A DNA stretch of 64,000 nucleotides from Raillietiella orientalis (Eukaryota), in assembly GCA_036172245.1 (NCBI GenBank), contig JAYWIR010000005.1, forward strand, positions 3,348,001 through 3,412,000, read 5' to 3'. The notes below the pieces were generated by a model that was given only the letters and a program-made list of their open reading frames with translations, was not told where the DNA came from and searched no databases. The translations under genes and the position numbers were made by a program. Below, piece after piece: positions 38,596-61,079 of the stretch. How positions within the stretch are numbered: the stretch's first letter is position 1; each line of letters opens with the position of its first letter.

Positions 38596-41500
38596 ATTGG
38601 ACCGGCTAAATTATGGGGAGTCAGCGATGAACAGAAAGATGACAGCAATAAAGGAATTTTCAATTTAGGAGATCAGTCATGGAGAGAAACTCCTTGGAAC
38701 GCAGGTAAACTTATATATTGTATTTACGTTGCATACTTCACAATGTACAAGCGCTTTATGCTATGATAAAAATTTCGAAATGAATCCAAGGAGTCCCGAA
38801 AGTTTATGCGAGCACCCTAAAAGTATTCCTTAGCAGAGTTTGAATTTTGTAAACGTTTTGGAGGTAGCAGAGACAAATGAAAAACTACCATCCTGAAAGT
38901 TTAATCTTTTCAGGAATTTTTAAATCCTTGGGGAAAAGATCAGGTTTATATCTACAAGCATGGCTTGCTCTGATGCGTGATCAGTGAAATTATTTTGTTC
39001 TCATTTTGACGCTGCTCACCAAGGTGACACTCTTCTTCAGATCGTAAATAGTGAACCATTTCTCGGATTAGTGCGGTAATTGTGATTTTTAAATCTGTAG
39101 TCAAAAAATTCAGAGGGTTCGGGGGGGGGGGGAGATTTTCTAATTAATTGCTGTGTATTTGTAGCTGTACAGATGATTTCAGATTTACTTCTTCAGTCAA
39201 CCTAGGTCATCTTAGATCTTTATCAGCCTGTACATGTTTTGAAAGGGTTCTTCCCCCTTCTTATTTGTAGGTTTTATAATTATATGCATTAAATTCAGTG
39301 AAAGCACACTTTGGAAAGAACATAATTTTCAGTTCATCCAATGATCGATTTAGAAATTCAAGTTCAAGAAATCTCAGATGAAATCTTATTTCTAGGTTTT
39401 GGTAAGAAATCAAGTTTTAGGCGGTTGTTTACACACAACAGGCAGAAAATTTCTGCAATGATATGGCTTTGATTCCAAATATTGTCGTGACAGAATCAGA
39501 GTTCACACTGGCAATGTTTTTCTCCCCCCCCCCCTTTTTTTTTTTGATTTTTTGAAACCTAAATAGCAATAATCGCTTATGTATGTTTTTTTTTTTTTTT
39601 TTTTTGATTTTCATTCTGAACTGCAGTCTTATTGCTGATAAGAGATGTTCAGAACTTTTTCTTTCATTTGCATGCGGAGGAACGTTGTGCATAATTGTAT
39701 TTCTTTTTGTAGTTATGCAGATGTGGATTTAGAACAACAAACGTTCAATTCATATTCGGGGTCTGACATGCTGGCTGAAATGTACTTATTTAATCTTCAA
39801 GATCGATTTGGTCCAGTATATGAGTTTCCTTTAGATTGATTAAGAGATTTTTCCGATACTTGACAGAACACCGAGTTAGATTGCCATGTTTTTGAGAAGT
39901 CGGATGATTTTGTCAAGTATTCTCCTCCTCTGTTTGCATTTGCTATGACTTCTGTGCGGTTTTCCTGTTACGGATAGATGTCCAGCACGACGGCTCCCTA
40001 TCTGCCGTAGTTTCAGCTTTGATTTTCACATCGCCGCGCCGTGTAGTCTGAAAAATTGAAGATCCTAAATATCATATTTCCTTCCTGGAGGTGCTCATTT
40101 CAAAACTGATGTAATGGAACTAACTGATGTAATGATATTGTTTGAATGAAAAGCCGGCTTATTGTATGACTCGAAATAGCCACCGTCTTAACAAGAATTT
40201 CCAACGTAATTTAGAGATTTTAGATTGTGCGTGTGTGTGCTTTAGGTCAGTTTTTTTTCTCCTGCAAAACTTAACTATCCAGAAATGTTACGTTGAATTC
40301 AAGAAAGTTACTGTTAACATGTGCTTATCGATGATTGCAGAATCCAGGGAAACATAAATCCAGAAAAACAAGGAATCTTATGGCCAAAACATTGATGCGA
40401 AATTCCATGGAAATTTTGTTTGGTCGCATTCGTGTTTCCCAAAATTTTCGCCTAAATTTTCGCAATAGTACAGATGATGAGTTATTGAAATTATGGAAAC
40501 CAGCATTCAATTTTCTGACCAATTTGTATGCTGTTGAAATGACGCATGCTTTTCACTTGCTCGAATACCTTCTTCTTCTGCCATTAATGTCGTGAAGATG
40601 CATAATGTAATGATGAAACTTGCCCTCCCAGAATTCATGGAGGGAAAAGTTTTCATTTGTACTGGTTTATGGACTGCATGCAATTACTCTGAATATCGAG
40701 AAGCTTATTTTTGGTAACACATTTCTGAACTAAGTACAGCTGCATGTAGACAGTAAGGGAATATTCAGTTCTAATAATTAGTTGCTCTGATAGAGCATTT
40801 CATAACTCATCTGCTCACAAGGAATAATAACTGGTTTTTGGAATTTCATAAATACTGTGTTTTGGGAATCTCATCTTCCTGTTTCCGGTGTGGAGCTTGT
40901 TCGTATTTTTATTTTATTTTTTTTTATTCCTGCTGCAATCGTAAGGAACCTCTGTGTTTTTATTTCGTGGTTTGGAAACAAGGAAACGAATGCATCCATG
41001 GAAGTAAACTTCCATGGGTGCATTCGTTGCGATTATGAGATACCTCGCTGTATTTGTCAAGAATAACGAATAATAGTAAAGTAAAAAACGAGGATGGCAT
41101 ACTGGAAACTATAAAAAGAACAATAAATTTATATTTATTTGAACGAAAGCAGTGGCGCTCTTTGTGAATATAATTATTAACAATTAAAATGGATACTTCT
41201 AGCGGATTTGGGAAAAGGTTTCGAGTTAAATCAGACCATTGAGATACGACGGATGTAAAATAGGTGCTTGATTATTCGTATGTTCTTTTATGGACGAAGA
41301 GGAATCACCAAGTTTACTGCAGTAGGAAAATTGAACGTCCTTTCTTATGTATATGAAATCAACTATCATTTTTTCAATTTGCTTTTCCTGTTTCCTCTCT
41401 GTCATTTACCCTTAGATCAATCTGTTTCACAACCCATCACCCTTGTTCCAAGAAGATCTGCCACTTTCCCTTCTGGAAACGCTTCAGCTGATGTGAATAG

Positions 41501-44500
41501 TGTTATGTCTCCACGTTCAGAATCCAGTGGTCTAGGAATGAAGATGGTGGAATATGTTCTCGGGACTAGTCCTACGACCAAAGACATCCTGGAGACCAGA
41601 ATGAGATTAATGGATTTGGTATAAAAGCAGTATACAACGGAACATTCATTTCCAGTTTCATGATAGAATGTGGCTGCAGAAAATGATGCCATCGAGAAAA
41701 CCATGGGATTTGAAAATAGCAAAGGGGATACAGACGCCAGTTCTACGTGCCAGAACAACTGCATGCTGCAGAATGGATTGCAAGATGATGACAAAACCTT
41801 CAAGTTAGCATTCCGCAATATCATAATTTTGATATAGGATATACAATTTAATTGTATTGTGATGGTTTCCCTCAATGTGTGAAATGCATCAATTTTATAG
41901 TAGAACACCGGGAAGTAGGCAGCCCAGCCCCACTAAGGAGGAGCAAATTCCAAAGAACAGCCATGTATCCATCAGCCATGTATCGAAGGTTGATGATCTT
42001 GTGGCGAATTCATTGGTTTCAACAACCACTTCCCTTGATGGGTGTTCAACAAATATGGTTGAACCTACGTTGATCGATCCAGTCTCATATTTTGAAAATG
42101 CCTACAGCTTAATGCCTCCTGTGGAATCCGCTGGCAGTCTACTAACACATGGTCTGAACAGTCAGGTATGCTAACTGTTATGTTATGCATGTGAATGAAA
42201 GTGTGAGTGTGTCCCTGCTTCAACCACTAGACACAGATCACATCTTCCTGTGTCTGGTCTCCAGGACAGCATCTCTAACAATATCCTTCCTATTTGCAAA
42301 GCTCTGCAATTCTGCCAGTCTTCGTCTTTTCCTTCCACTTGTTATCCTGATGTAAGTAATCATCCTTCAAGGATGGTAGAATAGAAACTTTCTGAAATGC
42401 TTGTTTTGACTACTCATTATCAAATTTTTTTTTAGCAACCACAACAGCATTTGTATCGTAATAACCACCAGCCATCCCTTCAGGTTTTAGCACAACAGCA
42501 ACAGTATGTACAGGGGCAACAGTTAGGTAAGTGCATGTTACATGCAGAATTATAATAATAGATAGTAGGCATTCCTTCTGGACCTTATCCGTCATCTCCT
42601 TATGTGATTAACCCACAGGAACCCTACCTCAGTACTCTTATAGCAAGTAAGCAGATTAAGTCATTAGGCAATTTTGCTTTTGTTATGAAGGTCCTGCAAT
42701 GGTTCCACCCTACTATGGCATGACACCTTGGGGGATGTACTCTGCTAATCTCATTCAGCAAGGTACACCACAACAAAGACGATCCATGCCCTCTTCGCAA
42801 ACTAATGAAGTAGTAAATCATAATGGTCTTCCTCAAGTGAGTACAGTCATGTAAGAACTGCAGCGAACTGCTGATATATCAGTTTCAGGAAGGTCAGTAC
42901 CAAGTTATTCCTGCATACTATGATCAAAACGGATCTTTTTTGATGGGTAATCCACGTGCTCCCAATGGAACACCTTTAAGACTGATTTCTCCAACCCCGG
43001 TCATCATCAATGCAGGAGCTCTTAATGGAGGTATCATTCTTTGTTTGTGAGCACTCCTTACCATGTTGGGTGCAGGACAGCAACTTAGTACCAATCCAGC
43101 AGCTGCAGCACTATACAACACTAGTGCTCCTAATTCGTTGTACACTCCACCTAGTTCCTCAGTATCTGGCATTGGTGGCATGCAACCACCAAGTAATGCA
43201 CATCTGAGTGCTTTCAGTAATTTGGGATTACCTCAAGGTTCAGCACTTGGCTATGGAGGTAAATTCTACAGGGTTTTTGGACATCCAAGTCGTATTTCAA
43301 CAGGGCCTGGTAACAATACAACCGGACGTCGTGATTCCTTTGATAGAAACTCATCTGGATTTTCCCCTTCATTAGATTACCGCAGTGGTAAATGGCTGCA
43401 GAACTATAATGCCTTAGGTGTGATCAGGGGGCGTTGTGTTATCAGTTATAAGCCACATTCAGGATCTTTAGGGATATCAGGCAGTTCAACTCCACCACCA
43501 TTATCTAACAGCCCCAGTCTTCCACTTGGTCATTTGATGGGCGTGGGAACAAATCGAGTGTTGCCTGCTACTCCAGGAAGACTTTGGGGGTCCCATCTTG
43601 GTTCTGACTGCAGAGAGTGGGGTACTATCAATGAAAACAGATTGCGCAATGGCGGTCTTACCAATGGAATAATGGGATTGAATAGTATGCTGCCTACTTG
43701 GAAGCATAACACAGTTATTGATAAGCCAGTAGGACGGAGCCGTTTGCTTGAAGATTTTCGGTAATATACTTTTTGATAACATGCTTGCATAATATTTTAT
43801 TAGTGCTTACACACTAACAGAACGAGGCAAAGGAGTGCTCTCATCAGATGAGGAGTTGTGTTCAGGACAGTGGGGACTAGATGCAGCTCAGCATGACGTT
43901 TTTGCAGATGCAAGCAGGTGTGGTAAAGAAAAACAGACCGTTTTAGCTTGAGATTTTTGCAGAAACAGATATCCCAATCTGCAACTTCGTGATTTAGCGA
44001 ATCACATTGTCGAGTTCTCACAAGACCAACATGGTTCGCGTTTCATTCAGTTGAAACTAGAACGCGCCACTCCTGCTGAGAAAGAAATGGTGTTTTCTGA
44101 AGTACTGACTGCAGCTTATAATTTGATGACAGATGTATTTGGGAACTATGTTATTCAGAAGTTTTTCGAATTTGGCACGCTGGAGCAGCGGAACATTTTA
44201 GTCTTGAAGGTACGCCAAAAGTACAAAGGTGCAAATTGCGAAACGTACTTCAGATTTCAGGCCAAGTGCTACCTTTAGCATTACAAATGTATGGGTGCCG
44301 TGTAATTCAGAAAGCCCTTGAATGTACCACAGCGGAACAACAGAAAGATATTGCACGTGAATTGGATGGCCATGTGATCCGTTGTGTGAAAGATCAGAAT
44401 GGCAATCATGTGGTGCAAAAATGCATCGAATGTGTGGAACCATCGGCACTGCAGTTTATCATAGATGCATTCCAGAATCAAGTGTTAGCGTTATCGACAC

Positions 44501-45063
44501 ATCCTTACGGATGCCGTGTCATTCAGCGAATTCTGGAACACTGCAATCCTGAACAAACACGGGCTGTGTTGGAGGAATTGCATCAGAATTCGGAACATCT
44601 TATCCAAGATCAATATGGAAATTATGTAGTACAGCATGTCCTGGAGAATGGAAAGCCAGAAGACCGGGCCAGAATAGTAACTGCAGTACGTGGGAAGGTG
44701 CTGCAGCTCTCTCAGCACAAATTCGCATCCAACGTTGTTGAAAGCTCGGTGGCTCATGCTTCGAGAGCCGATCGTGCCTCACTTGTTGAGGAAGTTTGTA
44801 ATTTTGCCGACGGTCCGCACAGTGGCTTGCATACAATGATGAAGGATCAGTTTGCTAACTATGTTATACAAAAGATGTTGGATGTGGCAGAACCAGCACA
44901 ACGCAAAGTGCTGATGCAGAAGATACGTCCATATGTTCCGGCATTGCGCAAGTATACCTACGGAAAGCACATAATCTCCAAGCTGGAAAAATATTATCTT
45001 AAAAATGGTGCAACAGAACTAAACCCTATAGTTCCACTGGGAGGAACCACTACGGGTCTTTGA
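38596..45063 (+). CDS. pum: Pumilio (PUF-family translational repressor). Core exons 38596-38704, 41416-41618, 41667-41803, 41901-42165, 42436-42526, 42569-42646, 42691-42836, 42889-43030, 43076-43258, 43304-43417, 43463-43760, [43804-43917], 43963-44209, 44254-45063
   Basis: Conserved blocks [66 protein letters not shown] and [10 protein letters not shown]. Eight PUF repeats carry canonical recognition motifs SRFIQ, NYVIQ, CRVIQ, NHVVQ, CRVIQ, NYVVQ, SNVVE, NYVIQ, ending [18 protein letters not shown]. Confidence 0.97.
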
Positions 45064-45092
45064 TTATCACGATTTTTCCCGCAAAAACGTAA

Positions 45093-45100
45093 TGTACATA
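45093..45100 (+). promoter_or_regulatory. Pumilio response element (UGUACAUA) in the pumilio 3' UTR
   Basis: Exact match to UGUANAUA, 30 nt after the stop codon; eight more UGUA cores follow up to 45338. Confidence 0.7.
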
Positions 45101-45360
45101 GTTATATACTTCACGAAACTCCTGACGAATAGTAGTAGTGCAAAATGATTGACGGACTGATTATCATCGCATTCGACAACAGTGATCTCAACATGCTTGA
45201 TGGACTTGTAGATCAATTTGTTCATCACCAGATGCGTTTGTGTGGCTTGTGCTATGTCTGTATAAGTGATGACGAGTGTACCTGGTCCATGTAATTTTGT
45301 ACATGCTGTATCAAATGTATAGAACCAGGAATGCTGTATAAAAATTTTTCCAATAATATT

Positions 45361-48300
45361 TTATTGGTGCTTTGGTAACAAGGCGTTCAACTCTTGAATG
45401 ATTTGGTCAATGCGGGCACTTGTGCCAAGGAATTGTGTCGGATGAGGTCCAATCATGGCAATAAGAGTGGGCACTTCATTGTATGCTATCTGGGCAAAAC
45501 GCAGAAGTGCATGCAGCAGGATAAACAAATTTTCCTCAGCTGGTGTTTGGGTCAGGAACTGAAGTATGGCCATGGATATTTCGGTTGCCACATCATCGAA
45601 TACCTGTAATTCAAATTTTCAAAAATCGTGAAAGGAACAAACTTGGAGTCAAGAACGCAAATCATAGAATCATCTTCGTGATTTTAAGTCTAAATTTAGG
45701 TACCCAACAAGAGCAAGATCCGCCTGTGTACCTTATTCAGAGCGCCTTTGGGAAGGAGTTTTCGAACGCGTAAATTCAAGGTCAATTTCTGCAAAACAGA
45801 CAAGACAGTCAAAGCTAAATACGGAAACACAATAAACATTCAAAATACGCGGCATGCGTAAAAGGGGTTACGAGGTGAGCGCGTTACACGGACACAGTAC
45901 ATCAGCTTCTTTACCTCCTTCGACGCCAAGTTGTGAACCATGGCAACACCAATTTCTTGCAAATTCGCCGTGTCACCCAATAAAGCATTGACGGCCACTT
46001 TCGTGGTAACTCTGATGTTGTTTAGAGCCTTTGAATCTCTTTCCCATTCCGAGATGTACATGAGCCATTCCGAGCTGCTCCTATGTTCAAACAGATTGCA
46101 CAGCTACGGAAAAACTAATAGCACCGAATGTTACTACTTCCGTTCCTCACCAATAGTGCAGTGGCTTCCTGTTCTTCGATGGGCAGGCGATCGATTTCAG
46201 CTGCATAATTCATAAGTGCATGGTCCTTCCTGTCCAAATGCAGCAACAGAATCATATCCTCTTTGAGCCCGGCACTCGCTAGCAAACGCAGAAGATGGAC
46301 CCGGGCAGACGAAGGGATGCGCTTGTCATGAAGCAGATTGCCTTTGAGGGATGATGACATAATGAAAGACATGAGTCTCTTGGTGTAGTCCGAAATGAGT
46401 TGCAGTCTGTCATGCACAAACTCTTTAAGGTTGGTTACTTGTTAGAACAAGGGTTTTTTTTTTTTTTTTTTTTCTTCCCGCCTTCAAAACTCGGTCCGAA
46501 TTATGGAAAGCTTTTTTTATGCGTACAGTAAAATTATTATCCAAATTTACCGATAAAGGTCATGGTTGCTTCACTAATGCACCACGCACCCTCATTTTCT
46601 ACCGCGTATTGACGCAAGTCTGCCACAGATGGTTCCTGGCCAAGTTTGTCCTCGATGTTTTTGAGCAGCTCCTCGAATTCTTTTGCAGGCTGGAATTCAA
46701 TGCAACTTATTACCTCAACACAACGTCCGTGTAACCCTTTACATACGGAAAAACAGTTTTGCATACACGGATTCCATTTTCGACTGTCAACGCATCACTT
46801 AATCTGCACACATATTTGATCCAACACAATGAATCCCTACAAACAGAGCACTGCTCCCATAAGGAAACATGGGAGTGTCTAGAACTGAAAGAACTTTTCC
46901 TAAACACTCAGACTTTAGTACACGTATGTGTTCGTTCCCTTCAACTTTCGGATCCCGGATTTGTATTAATTACTCTTCTCCGATGAACCTTTTGACTTCC
47001 TCGCTAATGAACGCAAAGGCAACGACCTGCACGTATTCGGTGGTGGTGGAAAAGCGCGCGTTTGTCAAAACTCTTTAATAAATCAAATACATATAGGGGT
47101 AGTGTTTCCTGTGATCCTCCACATTCCGGTGACTCAAACGCCGAACACGGAAAGTCAACCTACTCACTTTTCTGGAAATATCAACGTTATGACGCAACGT
47201 GTACTCTCCACAGTACGCGGAGGCTCTTTTTTTCTTTTCCTTTTTTTTTTTTTTTACTTTTTTTTTTTTACAAAATTAGCATTACAACCAGTGAAGTTTT
47301 ACATTACTTGAGATTTCGGTGGCGTAAACGCACCTGAAAATTGCACCTTTACGCAAACACCACGTGTTTTCGTCTAAAGGTTCTATTCTGCCGGTTCCTC
47401 AACATGCTAGCAGGCTGAAAACACGTCTTCCTCCAGTCACACTGTACTCATACGAAACATTAGAATAAACAATGGCGTGCTAACATTCTATTACAAATCG
47501 GAAAACTATTTAGACTCAGTAAATGAGCACCGCGATCTCACTGAAAAATGACAAGGCTTCATAAAGACCACTTACTTGGATGTCCTTAAACACAGTAGCA
47601 GATTCTCTAAGCCTTTCTTTCTTATGCTCACTTTCGTTTACTTCCAAATTGTCGTCTATCATCCTAAGCCACCAAAGACACTAAGATTATACACGTATCA
47701 GCAATTTTCAGCATCTCACTCTTCACACGTCTCGGTAGCGTTTTGCCAGTTTTGCTCTATTCCCTTCGTTACCTGGATTAAGGAGGGTAAAACCAATTGA
47801 CCTAAAGACCTGACAGCCGGCTCAAAACTTATATTATTATTACGGCCTTACGTGCTTAATAGTGCCTGCGGGAGTCTCAGAATCTCCTCTGGGATCGTTT
47901 TCCCACAAAGGAATTCTGCAACTTCATTTGAAAAATTGTTGCAATTGTGATGTATCAAATCATAATCGCTACCCCTGTGAAAAACTAAAAATCAGATTGC
48001 GGGAATATCTTCATTACTCGTGCAAATTACGTATTTTGGCATGTGCTCCCCCACCCCTCCCTTTTAGAAAACTAGAGCTGCAGTTTTTGATTCAAGTCGC
48101 ACACGAACAGCAAAATTTCAAGAAGTAATAAGCAGAAATAACCTCATGCAAAATCAAAATACATTTTCGTGAAAACACGGTTGCAAATAAATAAGGATGT
48201 AATTGATCTGCCTGTTACCCTGTTCCAGCAAAAAACGTGGGATGTGCCAGAGGAATCACACCGAATTTTCATTAAAAGCTAAATTAGTAACATAATGATA

Positions 48301-55500: not shown

Positions 55501-57740
55501 TAAATGAATGGCGCGTGTGCTGCTGGAGGCCGTAAAGGACACGGCAGCAATAAAAGTTGCTACAGAACCTTCTCACTTACTCTTCCGAACGTCCGAATAA
55601 AACGCGAACACGCAGACGGCATTCTTGAGTGCCGTCCGCACGTCAGCGAGATGAAGCGAGACCAGGAAAGCCGTCCATTCCCAGAATACCCCTTTCCTCC
55701 TCCACAGATTGGACCGAATTTTCGGAACCAAAAGCTGAAAAACTGCCTTCCTTGTGACGATTTTGGATCGCTCTCTTCTCCTGAATGATGACTGCATGCG
55801 AGGTCGGAAGAGGCACTCTCAGTTTGGCTGCTCTTCAGTGGTTTGCGCAGAGTGCTTTTGTCTGCGTTTTTTCATCTTTCCTGCTACGAGCGGAACATCT
55901 AGGTTCTTTGGTACATTTAATTTCCATTCCAGGGTACTGCTGAGCGAGACAACCCTATATCCGGTTGCGCCTGTTGGACAGGCACTCGATTGCTCCTCTG
56001 CGAAGCGATGACGAACCACTACGGTCGTGGTTTAACCGGAAAGGTGGGTTCCGTTCCAGACGAGACTCACCAGTGAGGAAGAATGGATTTCCTCGGCCTT
56101 TTCCCCGTTTTTCATCCCCCCAAAGGGGGGACAGCATCGTTATCAAATAAAAATGTTGAAGAAATAATTCATTTACATAATTAAAATTACTCATCACACA
56201 ATACATATTAATAATACTTTTCAAAGACATCAAATTAAATTTTATGCAATCAAGAATGTACAATTAAATACAATAAAAAGTATGAATTTTAAATGCTAAT
56301 ATTTGTAAGATATTAGAAACTGAGCTCATTTTTCAGTTTTTTTGGAAGGGATGATTTTGTTATTCAGTACGAATTTTCCTAACTGCATTATGAAGCATTA
56401 AATATTTATTTATAGTATGAACATTGGAGGTATTTATAGATTGCAACATATCCTTGCAGGTTACATATATATTATTATAATGGATGGATGAGAACTTCAA
56501 ACTGGCACGACTCCAGTCCACGCTCCTTTTCGCGGGCTTGGCTACCATGCTGATCGCGCGAGCTGACGTCACCTCCGCGGAGCCGGACTCCAGCAGACGG
56601 GCTTGAAGTCGTAAGTGCTGCATTCCATTCCACGTCTTCCGCAGAAGCATCTTCGATTGCGCGGATCCCGATTCTCCGGCACTTGCATCATCGAACGGCT
56701 TGCCTGAACGGAGTCGTCATCGTTATCCACTCAGCGACTGCAAACGGCCGAAAGCCGATACCATGGAGGGGAGAGACGAGAAGGAAGCTCGAGAGGAGCT
56801 TCCCCGGTTTTTCCAGGAAGTCTCTTAGGACGGGAGGTCCGACTGTTGGCCTCGCGGAACCCTGGATGAGGATGAGGATAGGGGGGGGGGGGATGAGGTC
56901 GTCCTCAGGTGCACGCACACCCCGAGCTATGACATACTCCCTGCCTTCCTTACGCTCCTTCCCTGACCGCGGGGCCCTCAGGAAAGCGTCGGCGTGCATC
57001 CCAAGGTGGTCTACTATCGATCCCTCCTTCCCTCGAAGAGGCGACTCTTCGGGCTGCATTGGGGAACGCCGCCACCCTGCGCCCGCCGCCTGTCGAGATG
57101 AATCCGCTCCGGCACTCTGTCCTTCGGACAGAAAGAGGAAAGCAGCGTTCCTTCCGGAGGAGCGAAGCAAGGCGTGGTTTTCATCCGGGTTGGTGCCCAC
57201 GGGTCCCTCAGAAGCAGGAGGAAGGCGGCAACCTCTCCATAAAGGGCATCCAGGGTGATTCCACCCCCCCCCCCTCTCCGTTCCGGTTAGCTGGGCGCCC
57301 AGCATCGATCCCCCCTTTCCCAGTCTCTTTCAAACAGGATGGGGAACCTCCAGATGGGAAGCAGACCGCGAGTGAAGGAGGGAAACCTGGAGCAGAGGTG
57401 GCATCAGGGGACACCTCCTTCCTGTGGCGCACCCCACCTCCCCACTCGCAGAGAGAAGGTCCGAGATGTTTCCTTGCGCCGCCTTTTTCTTTTTCCTTTT
57501 TTATTGTCATCATCATCATTATCATCATTGCCGCACACCGTTTTCAGTTCCGCTTTCACTTCCCTCGGAATCTCTCAGAGAAGAGTCTTCAGGTGGGAGA
57601 GTCTTCGGAGAGACCCAGCAGAGGAGACAAGGAAGGGGAGAGAAAGGAGGAGGAAGAAAGCTCCAGGGTCTTCCGGAAGCTCTTCTCCTTCCCTCCGTGC
57701 TCCCCTTCTTCAAACGCGCGCGCGCGTACCCTGCCATCGC

Positions 57741-59186
57741 TCACCGGACTGGGTCGCCGGACCCACTGCCGCCGCAGCTCTCCTCCGCGTACCACCGCAT
57801 GGTGGCATTCACGCTGCTGACCAGCCGATCCCGGTACTCGTGCAACCGCCTGTCCTCCACGGAGGCACTCCGGACGCAGTCGTCGCCCCCGAACTCACAC
57901 GTCCGGTAGTGGTGGAGCAGGGCGACGTCGCAGGGGACGGCGAGCGTCCTGTAGCCATCCAGGAACTCCCACACGAAGTGGTTGCCCAGCTCCAGCGCCC
58001 TCTGCGGGACGACGACATACTTGGACCGGATGCGGTGCGGGTGGGGGTCCCTCGTCCGCCTCGTCTTTTTCAGGGAGTGCAGGTCGTGGGGGGGAGCCAG
58101 GGGGTCGTCGGGCCACTGAAGGTAGAAGAAGGCGTTCCGGAAGCTGAAGCTGCCGGCCTCCTCCTCCGCGCCCAGGCGCGGGAGGAGGGCCTTCAGGTCG
58201 GACTGGGTCCGGGGCACGATGAACTCGTCCACGTCCAGGACGGCCACGTGCGTGTAAGAGGACATGCTGCGGTAGAGACAGTCATTCAGGGAGGCAAAGA
58301 TTCCCTCGGTGCGGATCTCCTTCTGGGACTCCAGGTCCAGCTTCCAGGGCATCAAGCGGACGATGCCCTCCTCCACGAACTTGCGCAGCAGGCAGTCCAC
58401 CCGCCCGCCAACGGCGCTGTCGTACAGGATGAAGTGATCCACCCCCAGGATGAGATTGAGCTCCAGGAACTCCGCCATCCTGGTGACCTGGTCGTAGGAG
58501 TTGTACAAGGGTTTCACGCACGCGGCGATCCTGACCCCCGTGGAGGGGGGTCTTTTCGCCGGGACAGTGTCCTGGATGCGGAGCCTGTTGGAAGGACAGT
58601 CCGACTCCTTCCTGACGACGGAGACGCTCTCGGGGACCGCGCTTCTCTCAGGGTCACGCTCGAGGGGGCATAGCACGAAGGAGGCGCTGTACGGGAGACC
58701 CCAGTTCTCCCGGATGATCCTGACGGTCGCCGAGGCCACGACCGGGTTCCTCTCCGGAAAGAACAACAGGCACTTCACCTTGTCGCTGTTCTTTGTCTTG
58801 GTAACTGCGATGATGCGTATCACGGCGCGCTGGGACCTGGCGTCCAGGTACGCCGAGTACAGGAAGAACTTGTGCCCGGTGTTGGCGACCGGCGCCCACC
58901 GCCCGTCGGACTCGGCGGCCGCTGAACTGAGGTTCGGGCAGTCAAACCGCCGCCTGTCCAGGCGGGCCTCAAGGACCTTCGTCGTCTCGCCTCCGGAGAC
59001 TACGGACGCGAAGCGCGCCCCCGACTGGACCAGGCGCAGGAACCTCAGGTCTCTCCGGAGCCGACTCCAGCTCGCGTCCTGCGACGCGAGTCTCTCGACA
59101 GTGACTAGCAGCCCGATCAGGTAGATCGCTCCGAAGATGAGGTATAGCAGCAGCTTCCTGTTCTTGTCACTTCCAACGAGGTGCAT
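57741..59186 (-). CDS. Glycosyltransferase family 92 (GALT-1-like beta-1,4-galactosyltransferase-like), type II membrane protein, single coding exon, 481 aa
   Basis: N-terminal transmembrane anchor (LLLYLIFGAIYLIGLLV), FLYSAYLD, IAACVKPL, EFLELNLILGVDHFILY, LNDCLYR, DxD motif VLDVDEFIVPR, RSKYVVVP, GNHFVWE, LLHHYR. Confidence 0.92.
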   Translation of the reverse strand: MHLVGSDKNRKLLLYLIFGAIYLIGLLVTVERLASQDASWSRLRRDLRFLRLVQSGARFASVVSGGETTKVLEARLDRRRFDCPNLSSAAAESDGRWAPVANTGHKFFLYSAYLDARSQRAVIRIIAVTKTKNSDKVKCLLFFPERNPVVASATVRIIRENWGLPYSASFVLCPLERDPERSAVPESVSVVRKESDCPSNRLRIQDTVPAKRPPSTGVRIAACVKPLYNSYDQVTRMAEFLELNLILGVDHFILYDSAVGGRVDCLLRKFVEEGIVRLMPWKLDLESQKEIRTEGIFASLNDCLYRSMSSYTHVAVLDVDEFIVPRTQSDLKALLPRLGAEEEAGSFSFRNAFFYLQWPDDPLAPPHDLHSLKKTRRTRDPHPHRIRSKYVVVPQRALELGNHFVWEFLDGYRTLAVPCDVALLHHYRTCEFGGDDCVRSASVEDRRLHEYRDRLVSSVNATMRWYAEESCGGSGSGDPVR

Positions 59187-59189
59187 ATC

Positions 59190-59221
59190 GGGGGTGGGGG
59201 TGGGGGTCTAGTGGGGTGGGG
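59190..59221 (+). other. G-quadruplex-forming motif abutting the GT92 start codon (template strand)
   Basis: GGGGGTGGGGGTGGGGGTCTAGTGGGGTGGGG: five G-tracts of 4-5 nt. A second G-tract cluster lies at ~59361-59390. Confidence 0.6.
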
Positions 59222-61079
59222 ACCGTAACAAAGAGCACTCGGTCGTCTCTTCAGTTGCGAGCCAGTCGCCGAAGCCGGACGCGAGGTGGTGGCTGAAGGT
59301 GGGTGGCACCATAACCTTTTCTCGCGGATCGGGAAAACAAGAAAGAGCGAAAGGTGGGAAGGAGGGTGGGGGGGCGGGAGGGAGTGGGAGAGAAAAAACG
59401 TCCAACGCGTCGAAATTACACGTCACCCGGTGGCATGGCGGCAAGAAGTCGCGTCCGAGACTTTCAAGAGTGGCTCCTCACTTCACACTCGGCTCAGATT
59501 GGGGGGTCGGATGGTTCCCGCACAATTGGTTTGGGACCCGACGATCGGACAATTTCGAAGGTCCCACATGCCACTCGCGAAAGGAAGGCGCTCTCCATGG
59601 AGATCGATCCCAATCGTGTCCAGGAGCCTGCGCAGTGCGGCGTGCTTGTAGACGGACAGGCCTCGTCTCCAGAAAAAAGGAAGAACAATCATCCAGCTAC
59701 CGCGTTCTTTGCAGCGCGGAAATTCGGAGCGACGGAGCTTTTGAATCGTGCGCGAGGATGGTACGTGTACGTCGCCTTCCGTACTTGACCGAGGGGGAGA
59801 GAAAAAATCTCGCTTTTTCTCTGGAGAGACCTGGAAGCGGGGACTCGCGAAAGAGGGAAAGCGCGTGCGCCTTCTGAGCCCGTACAGTGCGTAGTGCACC
59901 CCTCAGGAGCGACACGGGTACGCAGCAGCAGCACGAAACCACGGGTTTCGGCTTTTCCTTCTCTTCAGAATGAGAATCTTCGCCAGCGACTTCGAAAGAT
60001 TCATTTGCGCGGATGGCGATAGAAGAGCTTTCCCTTCCGCGCTGTAAAGCCTATCAGCACAGCTGTGACGTCATAGGGACGGCACGCGATTATTAGGTAT
60101 GGCTATACACAGAGGGGAAAAAAATCTCCACATGTATGTGATCATGTATTTTTTGCTCCTCACACAACGATATGCGTCATACGTACGACACGAATATAAA
60201 GGCAAAAAAGGGAAAAACGAGCAATCCCGTGAAAACGAGCAATAACATATGAGGAAGATGATGATGCTGACGAATAGGAATGCATCAACACGGCTAGAGT
60301 TCATTGAAGACCTGTCAAGATGGGTGATGCCATCTACGACCTGAGCACCTTCTTCTGGGGTGTTCCTCACGTCCAGAGCGCCGAGTGCGCGTGGAGAAAG
60401 TCGCCATCCACTACAGTGTTGTGATCTGGAATCCACGTGAGGAAAACGGAGTCTCTCCAGGTGTTCGCGCGAAGTGTAGATGGAAACGCTGGCGTGTTTG
60501 CTGCACATACGTCCCGTCTTGTTCGGACAGTGGAAGGAAGGTCTCCGTTGTAGGCATTCTGGTGGAAGAGTCGAAAACGGCGGAGGGAAGCGAAGGAAAT
60601 CCCGGTGTCTGCATGCATCGATGGTGTAAAAAAAGCGTGCGTCACTTTATGGTTTGTGTCTGTGTGTGTTTTTCAGAAAAAGCAATTCTATTCTCACCAC
60701 AATTCTATGAGATTATGGAAACTTTCACAAATGTGTGTCAGAGGTATCAGAAACGACAATGGACGTCCCAAATGTAGGACGTTCCAAGACGTCCTACTTG
60801 AAATGCACCCGTAAAGAACAGCATTTTTTTTTTAAAAACAAAAAATCCAGTCTTCAGATTTCAGAGGAATTTTCGAAGAGACAGTGAGGCGACGATGGAT
60901 CTGAAGTCTCCATTCGGCAAACGAAACCCAAGTTCCCGCTTCCTGAATATGCAGCCATGTTTGTTCGCTTATGTATAGGAATGCAGGTCATTTGGAAGGA
61001 AGAAATTGAGAAAATTCAAAAGAAGCGGGCTTAGCAGCAGACGACTTGCCATCCAGGTGTAATGTTTTCCGGATGTTTG

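Follow-up and report, generated by a model that had tools for sequence, protein, structure and literature searches.

The window, by which we mean the whole stretch of 64,000 nucleotides that was analyzed, encodes on its + strand a classical animal Pumilio gene. It has 8 PUF repeats (PF00806), of which 2 are in 43964-44209 (E = 7e-25) and 6 are in 44254-45060 (E = 9e-64). The N-terminal part aligns to Drosophila Pumilio chain 3h3d with E = 1e-60 over query residues 2-80, and the solved PUM-HD structures matched at E = 1e-60 are those of Drosophila Pumilio (3h3d, 5kl1) and human PUM1 (5ykh). The C-terminal part is no more than 77% identical to any of its 7457 database matches (E <= 1e-30), with cladocerans and fish PUM2 at the top of that collection. 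Around the start of the PUF domain, the parts of the gene are as follows.

43463..43760, + strand: Pumilio exon ending in LLEDF and the first two bases of an R codon, with the first helix of the N-terminal cap R1' (from the sequence and RNA contig piece 43461-43759, in frame)

43761..43803, + strand: 43-nt GT..AG intron, GC 0.21 (RNA joint 43759>43803, cut placed at +1)

43804..43917, + strand: 114-nt phase-2 coding exon, giving a 37-residue acidic peptide and a split R codon, GC 0.49 (kept in the RNA contig, open, in frame)

43918..43962, + strand: 45-nt GT..AG intron, GC 0.38, with an in-frame TGA at 43949-51 (RNA joint 43913>43959, cut placed at +4; the open reading frame 43793..43951 ends at that TGA)

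43963..44209, + strand: exon with the rest of cap R1' and PUF repeats 1-2 (3h3d match, PUF profile, RNA contig)

44210..44253, + strand: 44-nt GT..AG intron (the loose end of an RNA contig behind 44209 reads 44254 onward)

44254..45063, + strand: last coding exon, with PUF repeats 3-8, the C-terminal cap and the stop codon (PUF profile, up to 77% identity to animal Pumilios)

43819..43851, + strand: candidate second acceptor AG at 43819-20 and a TGA at 43849-51 (read from the letters, without an RNA joint)

The less conserved region 5' of the domain is matched best by arthropod Pumilios (stick insect, crabs, psyllid, phylloxera). The gene thus points to an animal, perhaps arthropod-like, whose near relatives are absent from the protein collections. 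A phmmer search of 1.84 billion representatives with the 237-aa upstream open frame has 29 matches at E <= 0.001, with identities of 46-48% for the top three and 38% for the weakest among the matches listed. Seven of these have an LLEDFR-like motif, in canonical form for 5 of the 7, and the insert described below is in none of the 7. On sequence grounds, the gene is assigned to the Pumilio/PUF family and within it to the classical Pumilio subgroup, with the cap insert as a variant and not a cause for exclusion. The subgroup is characterized by binding of the UGUANAUA Pumilio response element, a property that for this protein is a prediction. Compared with the contiguous cap LLEDFR-NNR-[YF]PNLQL, the form present in RNA has 37 residues between the halves, and a form skipping the 114-nt exon would be one residue short.

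The main point of interest is the 202-nt gap in the middle of the cap motif. The upstream exon ends at 43760 with CTT GAA GAT TTT CG, which is LLEDF plus two bases of R, and the next exon begins at 43963 with A AAC AGA TAT CCC, which is R-NRYP(NLQL). Joining them directly gives a skip product reading FR-NR-YP. Read in phase 2, 43804-43917 is free of stops and yields R plus 37 residues (AYTLTE...VFADAS) and a split R codon, and inclusion gives 38 residues more than the skipped form. Splicing to the AG at 43819-20 instead would shift the frame and run into the TGA at 43849-51. The original prediction had named all of these features, namely the coordinates, the GT..AG ends, the open phase-2 frame, the FRNRYP skip and the AG at 43820 leading to TGA 43849, and each is present in the sequence. 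It had also described the 43- and 45-nt introns as being of modal size, which agrees with the 42-48 nt found for 10 of the 11 RNA-supported introns of the gene (10 of the 11 taken from listed contig joints, and 44210-44253 from the loose end), the remaining one being 270 nt. To parse a 202-nt GT..AG segment as an intron of 38-60 nt, a frame-keeping open exon and another intron of 38-60 nt is possible by chance in 864 of 20000 mononucleotide shuffles, in 1226 of 20000 first-order Markov sequences, and in 37 of 366 natural 202-mers of the window, and the pattern by itself is weakly beyond chance. Hence, we call the exon real because an RNA contig carries both of its junctions, the sequence parse alone being insufficient.

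The RNA is from the only public run found, a metatranscriptome of a mixed-organism sample, used as assembled contigs (share of words 0.20). At 85% likeness, 9 contigs match 41000-46000, and 7 of them are 95-99% alike. One contig of 998 nt (record 3, depth 5.9) has the joints 43759>43803, skipping 43 nt, and 43913>43959, skipping 45 nt, both of them GT..AG. Between the two joints are 111 aligned letters, and the contig coordinates are contiguous across them (267 to 268 at the first joint and 378 to 379 at the second); since the flanking pieces cover 17-267 and 379-677, the gap between them is of just this size, and the contig has the 114-nt exon with no indel. It also excises the 45-nt introns 43031-43075, 43259-43303 and 43418-43462. 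The flanking pieces depart from the window at 5 of 299 and at 18 of 251 letters, so the contig comes from a close relative, a strain or a second haplotype with the same exon, the same splice sites and the same length. The exon 43804-43917 is real and spliced into RNA. The claim of a hidden coding exon in the 202-nt gap is borne out by this contig, which has 43760>43804 and 43917>43963; the original prediction had staked itself against a gene in which only 43760>43963 exists, and both inclusion junctions are in the RNA. Among the joints listed for the contigs of this one run, there is neither a 43760>43963 skipping joint nor a 43760>43821 joint, with the proviso that assembled contigs drop minor isoforms, and among the contigs listed for the run none retains an intron.

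From 42436 to the stop at 45063, the gene is in a single frame when the 114-nt exon is included. The other exons have a GC content of 0.41-0.47, close to the 0.49 of the 114-nt exon and above the 0.21 and 0.38 of its flanking introns, and a second exon of 114 nt is found in the same gene at 43304-43417. The introns on either side of that one, 43259-43303 and 43418-43462 (45 nt each), are in frame and stop-free, and an open frame 43051-43764 runs through both; the RNA contig excises them, and an annotation based on open reading frames would add 15 false residues for each. Further upstream, 41667-42165 has stops in the gene frame and a dip in contig cover, which together indicate at least one further intron there. 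The 270-nt intron 42166-42435 might hide another small exon, as the contig gives its interior as "between: not known"; 42169-42335 and the region upstream of 41334 are examples of places without contig cover. At the other end of the gene, a contig ends at 45626 with the loose end GTAAAAAA, which hints at polyadenylation there and at some 560 nt of 3' UTR past the stop at 45063. Rfam has no match anywhere in the window. Elsewhere in the window, an open frame of 488 codons runs without interruption through 57744-59207 on the − strand and has a domain of glycosyltransferase family 92 (E = 3e-39), and the GC-rich island (0.54-0.62) within 56001-60000 holds this frame, with the rest of the window at 0.29-0.45 GC. 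An intronless, compositionally odd family 92 gene amid so many tiny introns may be of foreign or retro-copied origin.

The place of the exon is what makes it unusual. R1' is given in PMC5961129 as the N-terminal flanking region adjoining repeat 1. Among the 120 best database matches, 120 read LLEDFRNNR[FY]P[NS]LQL without interruption. In 80 metagenomic Pumilio loci, 66 have a contiguous F[RK], 3 residues, and the aligned RYP-type motif ([YF]P); another 12 have an intron exactly at this site, with an acceptor side that restores the spacing (...R N, then N R [YF] P); in one (L042) the intron lies three codons further on; and one (L052) is without RNNRYP. Neither the window's insert nor the spacing of the skip form, shorter by one residue, occurs in any of the 120 best database Pumilios or of the 80 metagenomic loci, and the residue that the skip form lacks is kept in 120 of 120 proteins and 78 of 80 loci. 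A Pumilio made by skipping would therefore depart from the canonical protein, which is a mild argument for selection on the included form.

Searches with the insert peptide itself give the same picture. With the 52-aa open frame as query, a word-based search through 5.8 billion proteins finds no homologue at E <= 0.01, which is weak for so short a query; Pfam has no match to the peptide; and tblastn and blastp against the window, the 80 loci and 149 proteins find nothing below E = 0.38 except the peptide itself. Close relatives recognizable by the upstream exon (99 aa) were found neither in a protein search nor in a metagenome scan. Among the papers listed by full-text searches of the openly available literature on Pumilio splicing, none, judging by title and abstract, deals with an exon in the cap. 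The insert thus appears, from these sequence comparisons, to be lineage-specific. Strong conservation of the cap had been assumed at the outset, and the figures agree with it, as the motif is uninterrupted in 120 of 120 proteins and is kept by the 80 loci except for the deletion variant L052. The statement that no such exon is known in other Pumilios fits the 120 best matches, the 80 loci, the phmmer matches and the peptide searches, and tblastn and blastp comparisons with the peptide, of the kind proposed for finding the exon in related genomes, came out negative for the 80 metagenomic loci, the 149 proteins and the rest of the window.

A few sequences do show something other than the standard loop at this junction. 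L052, a metagenome contig that looks like a transcript, shares 95% identity with a phylloxera Pumilio isoform across 450 residues, and in 2031-2111 it reads LLEDF-SLQLRDL, with exactly RNNRYP missing at the same splice junction. That deletion is consistent with the use of an in-frame acceptor 18 nt downstream, which is how we would explain it from the sequence. Two gene models also have odd loops: P0142 from Diaphorina citri reads FR-ITSPPADDFSS-LTLRDL, and P0121 from Dryococelus australis has about 430 residues between LLEDFR and NRNNRFPSLQL, reading through what in other sequences is an intron. On their sequences, both look like gene-model problems at the same intron, and P0142 could alternatively be a real loop variant.

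As for how the exon is used, genomes with such minimal introns generally have each intron recognized as a unit, by intron definition. Because the introns of this gene are nearly all 42-48 nt, each is probably removed singly, and inclusion would then be the default and probably constitutive. The architecture points to constitutive inclusion in two respects, the minimal 43- and 45-nt introns and an exon GC of 0.49 like that of the neighbors; in all the structural features compared, the exon is an ordinary one, and intron retention is favored over exon skipping as the likelier minor event. A truncated protein would result if either small intron were retained: the 43-nt one throws the reading out of frame, and the 45-nt one contains the TGA at 43949. 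We give a probability of about 0.6 to the reading that this is a real exon included by default.

Most likely, the exon gives cap R1' a constitutive, acidic loop at its surface, with 7 D/E and 2 K/R among the 37 residues. Both halves of R1' remain intact (LLEDFR ... RNRYPNLQL), with the acidic stretch placed between the two cap helices, and on the C-terminal side of the included form three residues (R-N-R) still precede YP. Modelled alone, the insert peptide comes out as coil apart from a single turn of helix (mean pLDDT 63.5), which is weak evidence, being from a single sequence. The insert is probably disordered and would form a surface loop between the cap helices that the fold tolerates; we infer its constitutive use, its loop character and its tolerance by the fold. 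An insert in a nearly invariant motif could, on the other hand, mean functional importance rather than a neutral loop. The insert has an SSDEE stretch, which we take to be like a casein-kinase-2 (CK2-like) motif, and a regulatory role of the insert, for example through phosphorylation at SSDEE, is speculation. Being about one repeat long, the insert was also considered as an extra degenerate PUF repeat, and this was rejected as it has no PF00806 match and its model is coil.

The contig has to be weighed against the possibility that the exon is an artefact or untranslated, for example an assembly chimera in the RNA contig or the product of infrequent mis-splicing, in which case the true mRNA would have the single 202-nt intron. 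The inclusion junctions do come from a single contig of depth about 6 in a mixed-organism library, and the parse does arise by chance in 4-10% of controls. Even so, a chimera would not remove two introns of modal size exactly at GT..AG on either side of an open, frame-keeping segment with exon-like GC, and the same contig splices three upstream introns correctly, which leaves this explanation highly improbable. A different matter is whether the exon is a regulated cassette, in which case insert-bearing and FRNRYP Pumilio would both be made in a ratio set by tissue or stage, providing two RNA-binding domains that differ in the cap loop. With an exon length that is a multiple of 3, skipping stays in frame, and the stop counts are equal with and without the exon; removal of a 202-nt intron is feasible, since the gene has one of 270 nt; and the same junction changes the cap in another animal, namely L052. 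What counts against regulation is the absence of 43760>43963 among the joints listed, the loss from the skip product of the residue kept in nearly all comparators, and the tendency of minimal introns toward separate removal, and we regard a cassette as possible but unlikely. An extended version, which we consider improbable, would have the cassette toggle between a near-canonical cap and an acidic phosphorylatable loop beside repeat 1, which recognizes the 3' end of the response element; such a loop would be an auto-regulator that mimics RNA or docks a partner, and the phase-2 intron at LLEDFR, taken together with L052, would be a recurrent cap-tuning splice site in animals.

The original prediction had gone beyond a cassette to propose a three-way splice switch, and that proposal is without support, as the contigs of the single run list neither a 43760>43963 nor a 43760>43821 joint. 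In its third branch, the AG at 43819-20 would also be used, the frame would shift to the TGA at 43849, and either NMD or a product null for RNA binding could then serve for dosage control. The sequence does contain this AG and this TGA, and the bona fide acceptor of intron 43259-43303 also reads AACAG. The AG at 43820 lies, however, 17 nt 3' of a stronger T-rich acceptor, ATATTTTATTAG, and is itself without a pyrimidine tract; out-of-frame AGs less than 20 nt from an acceptor are common by chance; and with no 43821 joint listed, we find its use decidedly improbable. As a separate observation on acceptors, the ten letters TTTTTGCAGA that form the acceptor of the 45-nt intron (43954-43963) recur inside the exon at 43899-43908. 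This inner copy ends 9 nt before the end of the exon (E = 5, which may be chance), and its use as an acceptor would shift the frame.

The reading we prefer, default inclusion, also places the exon inside an older intron. A phase-2 intron splits the R codon of LLEDFR in many animals and is common to unrelated loci, with introns of 100 nt in L034 and L043 and of kilobases in the insect-like L003 group. With the intron position shared in this way, the intron is old and the exon originated inside it. In this lineage, the old phase-2 intron has given way to two minimal introns of 43 and 45 nt around the 114-nt exon.

At present, the insert is best seen as a lineage-specific curiosity. Its interest is that the N-terminal cap motif belongs to the best-conserved parts of the Pumilio protein, and a transcript-supported insert of 37 residues means that, in one animal lineage at least, the loop between the cap helices accommodates a large insertion. 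For those engineering the PUF scaffold, the cap loop is a possible insertion site, and for annotation the lesson is that homology-guided gene models would skip the 114-nt exon. Should the exon prove regulated, it would add a new means of modulating a PUF domain.

Comparison with known systems places the gene as follows. It resembles Drosophila Pumilio and vertebrate PUM1 and PUM2, whose PUM-HD carries the caps R1' and R8', in having eight PUF repeats (2 + 6) and both halves of the cap motif, and it is unlike them in having 37 residues between FR and (R)NRYP, with one N of FRNNR missing. With the hemipteran-like L052 it shares the phase-2 junction after LLEDF(R) and an altered loop between the cap helices, but L052 is a 6-residue deletion seen in one contig only, whereas the window has an inserted exon. 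Poison exons that autoregulate through NMD are known for RNA-binding proteins, for example the SR proteins. The likeness of our locus to these is confined to the hypothetical 43821 acceptor or to retention of a small intron, either of which would stop translation prematurely, ahead of the PUM-HD; the exon itself, unlike a poison exon, is open and frame-keeping, and no poison-type transcript is among the contigs listed. A parallel in origin is exonization within ancient introns, in that the intron position is common to distant animals and the new exon is without a homologue or a second copy in the window. New exons are usually alternative and weakly included. In contrast to typical ones, here the sole transcript found includes the exon, and the introns that flank it are of the minimal size of the genome.
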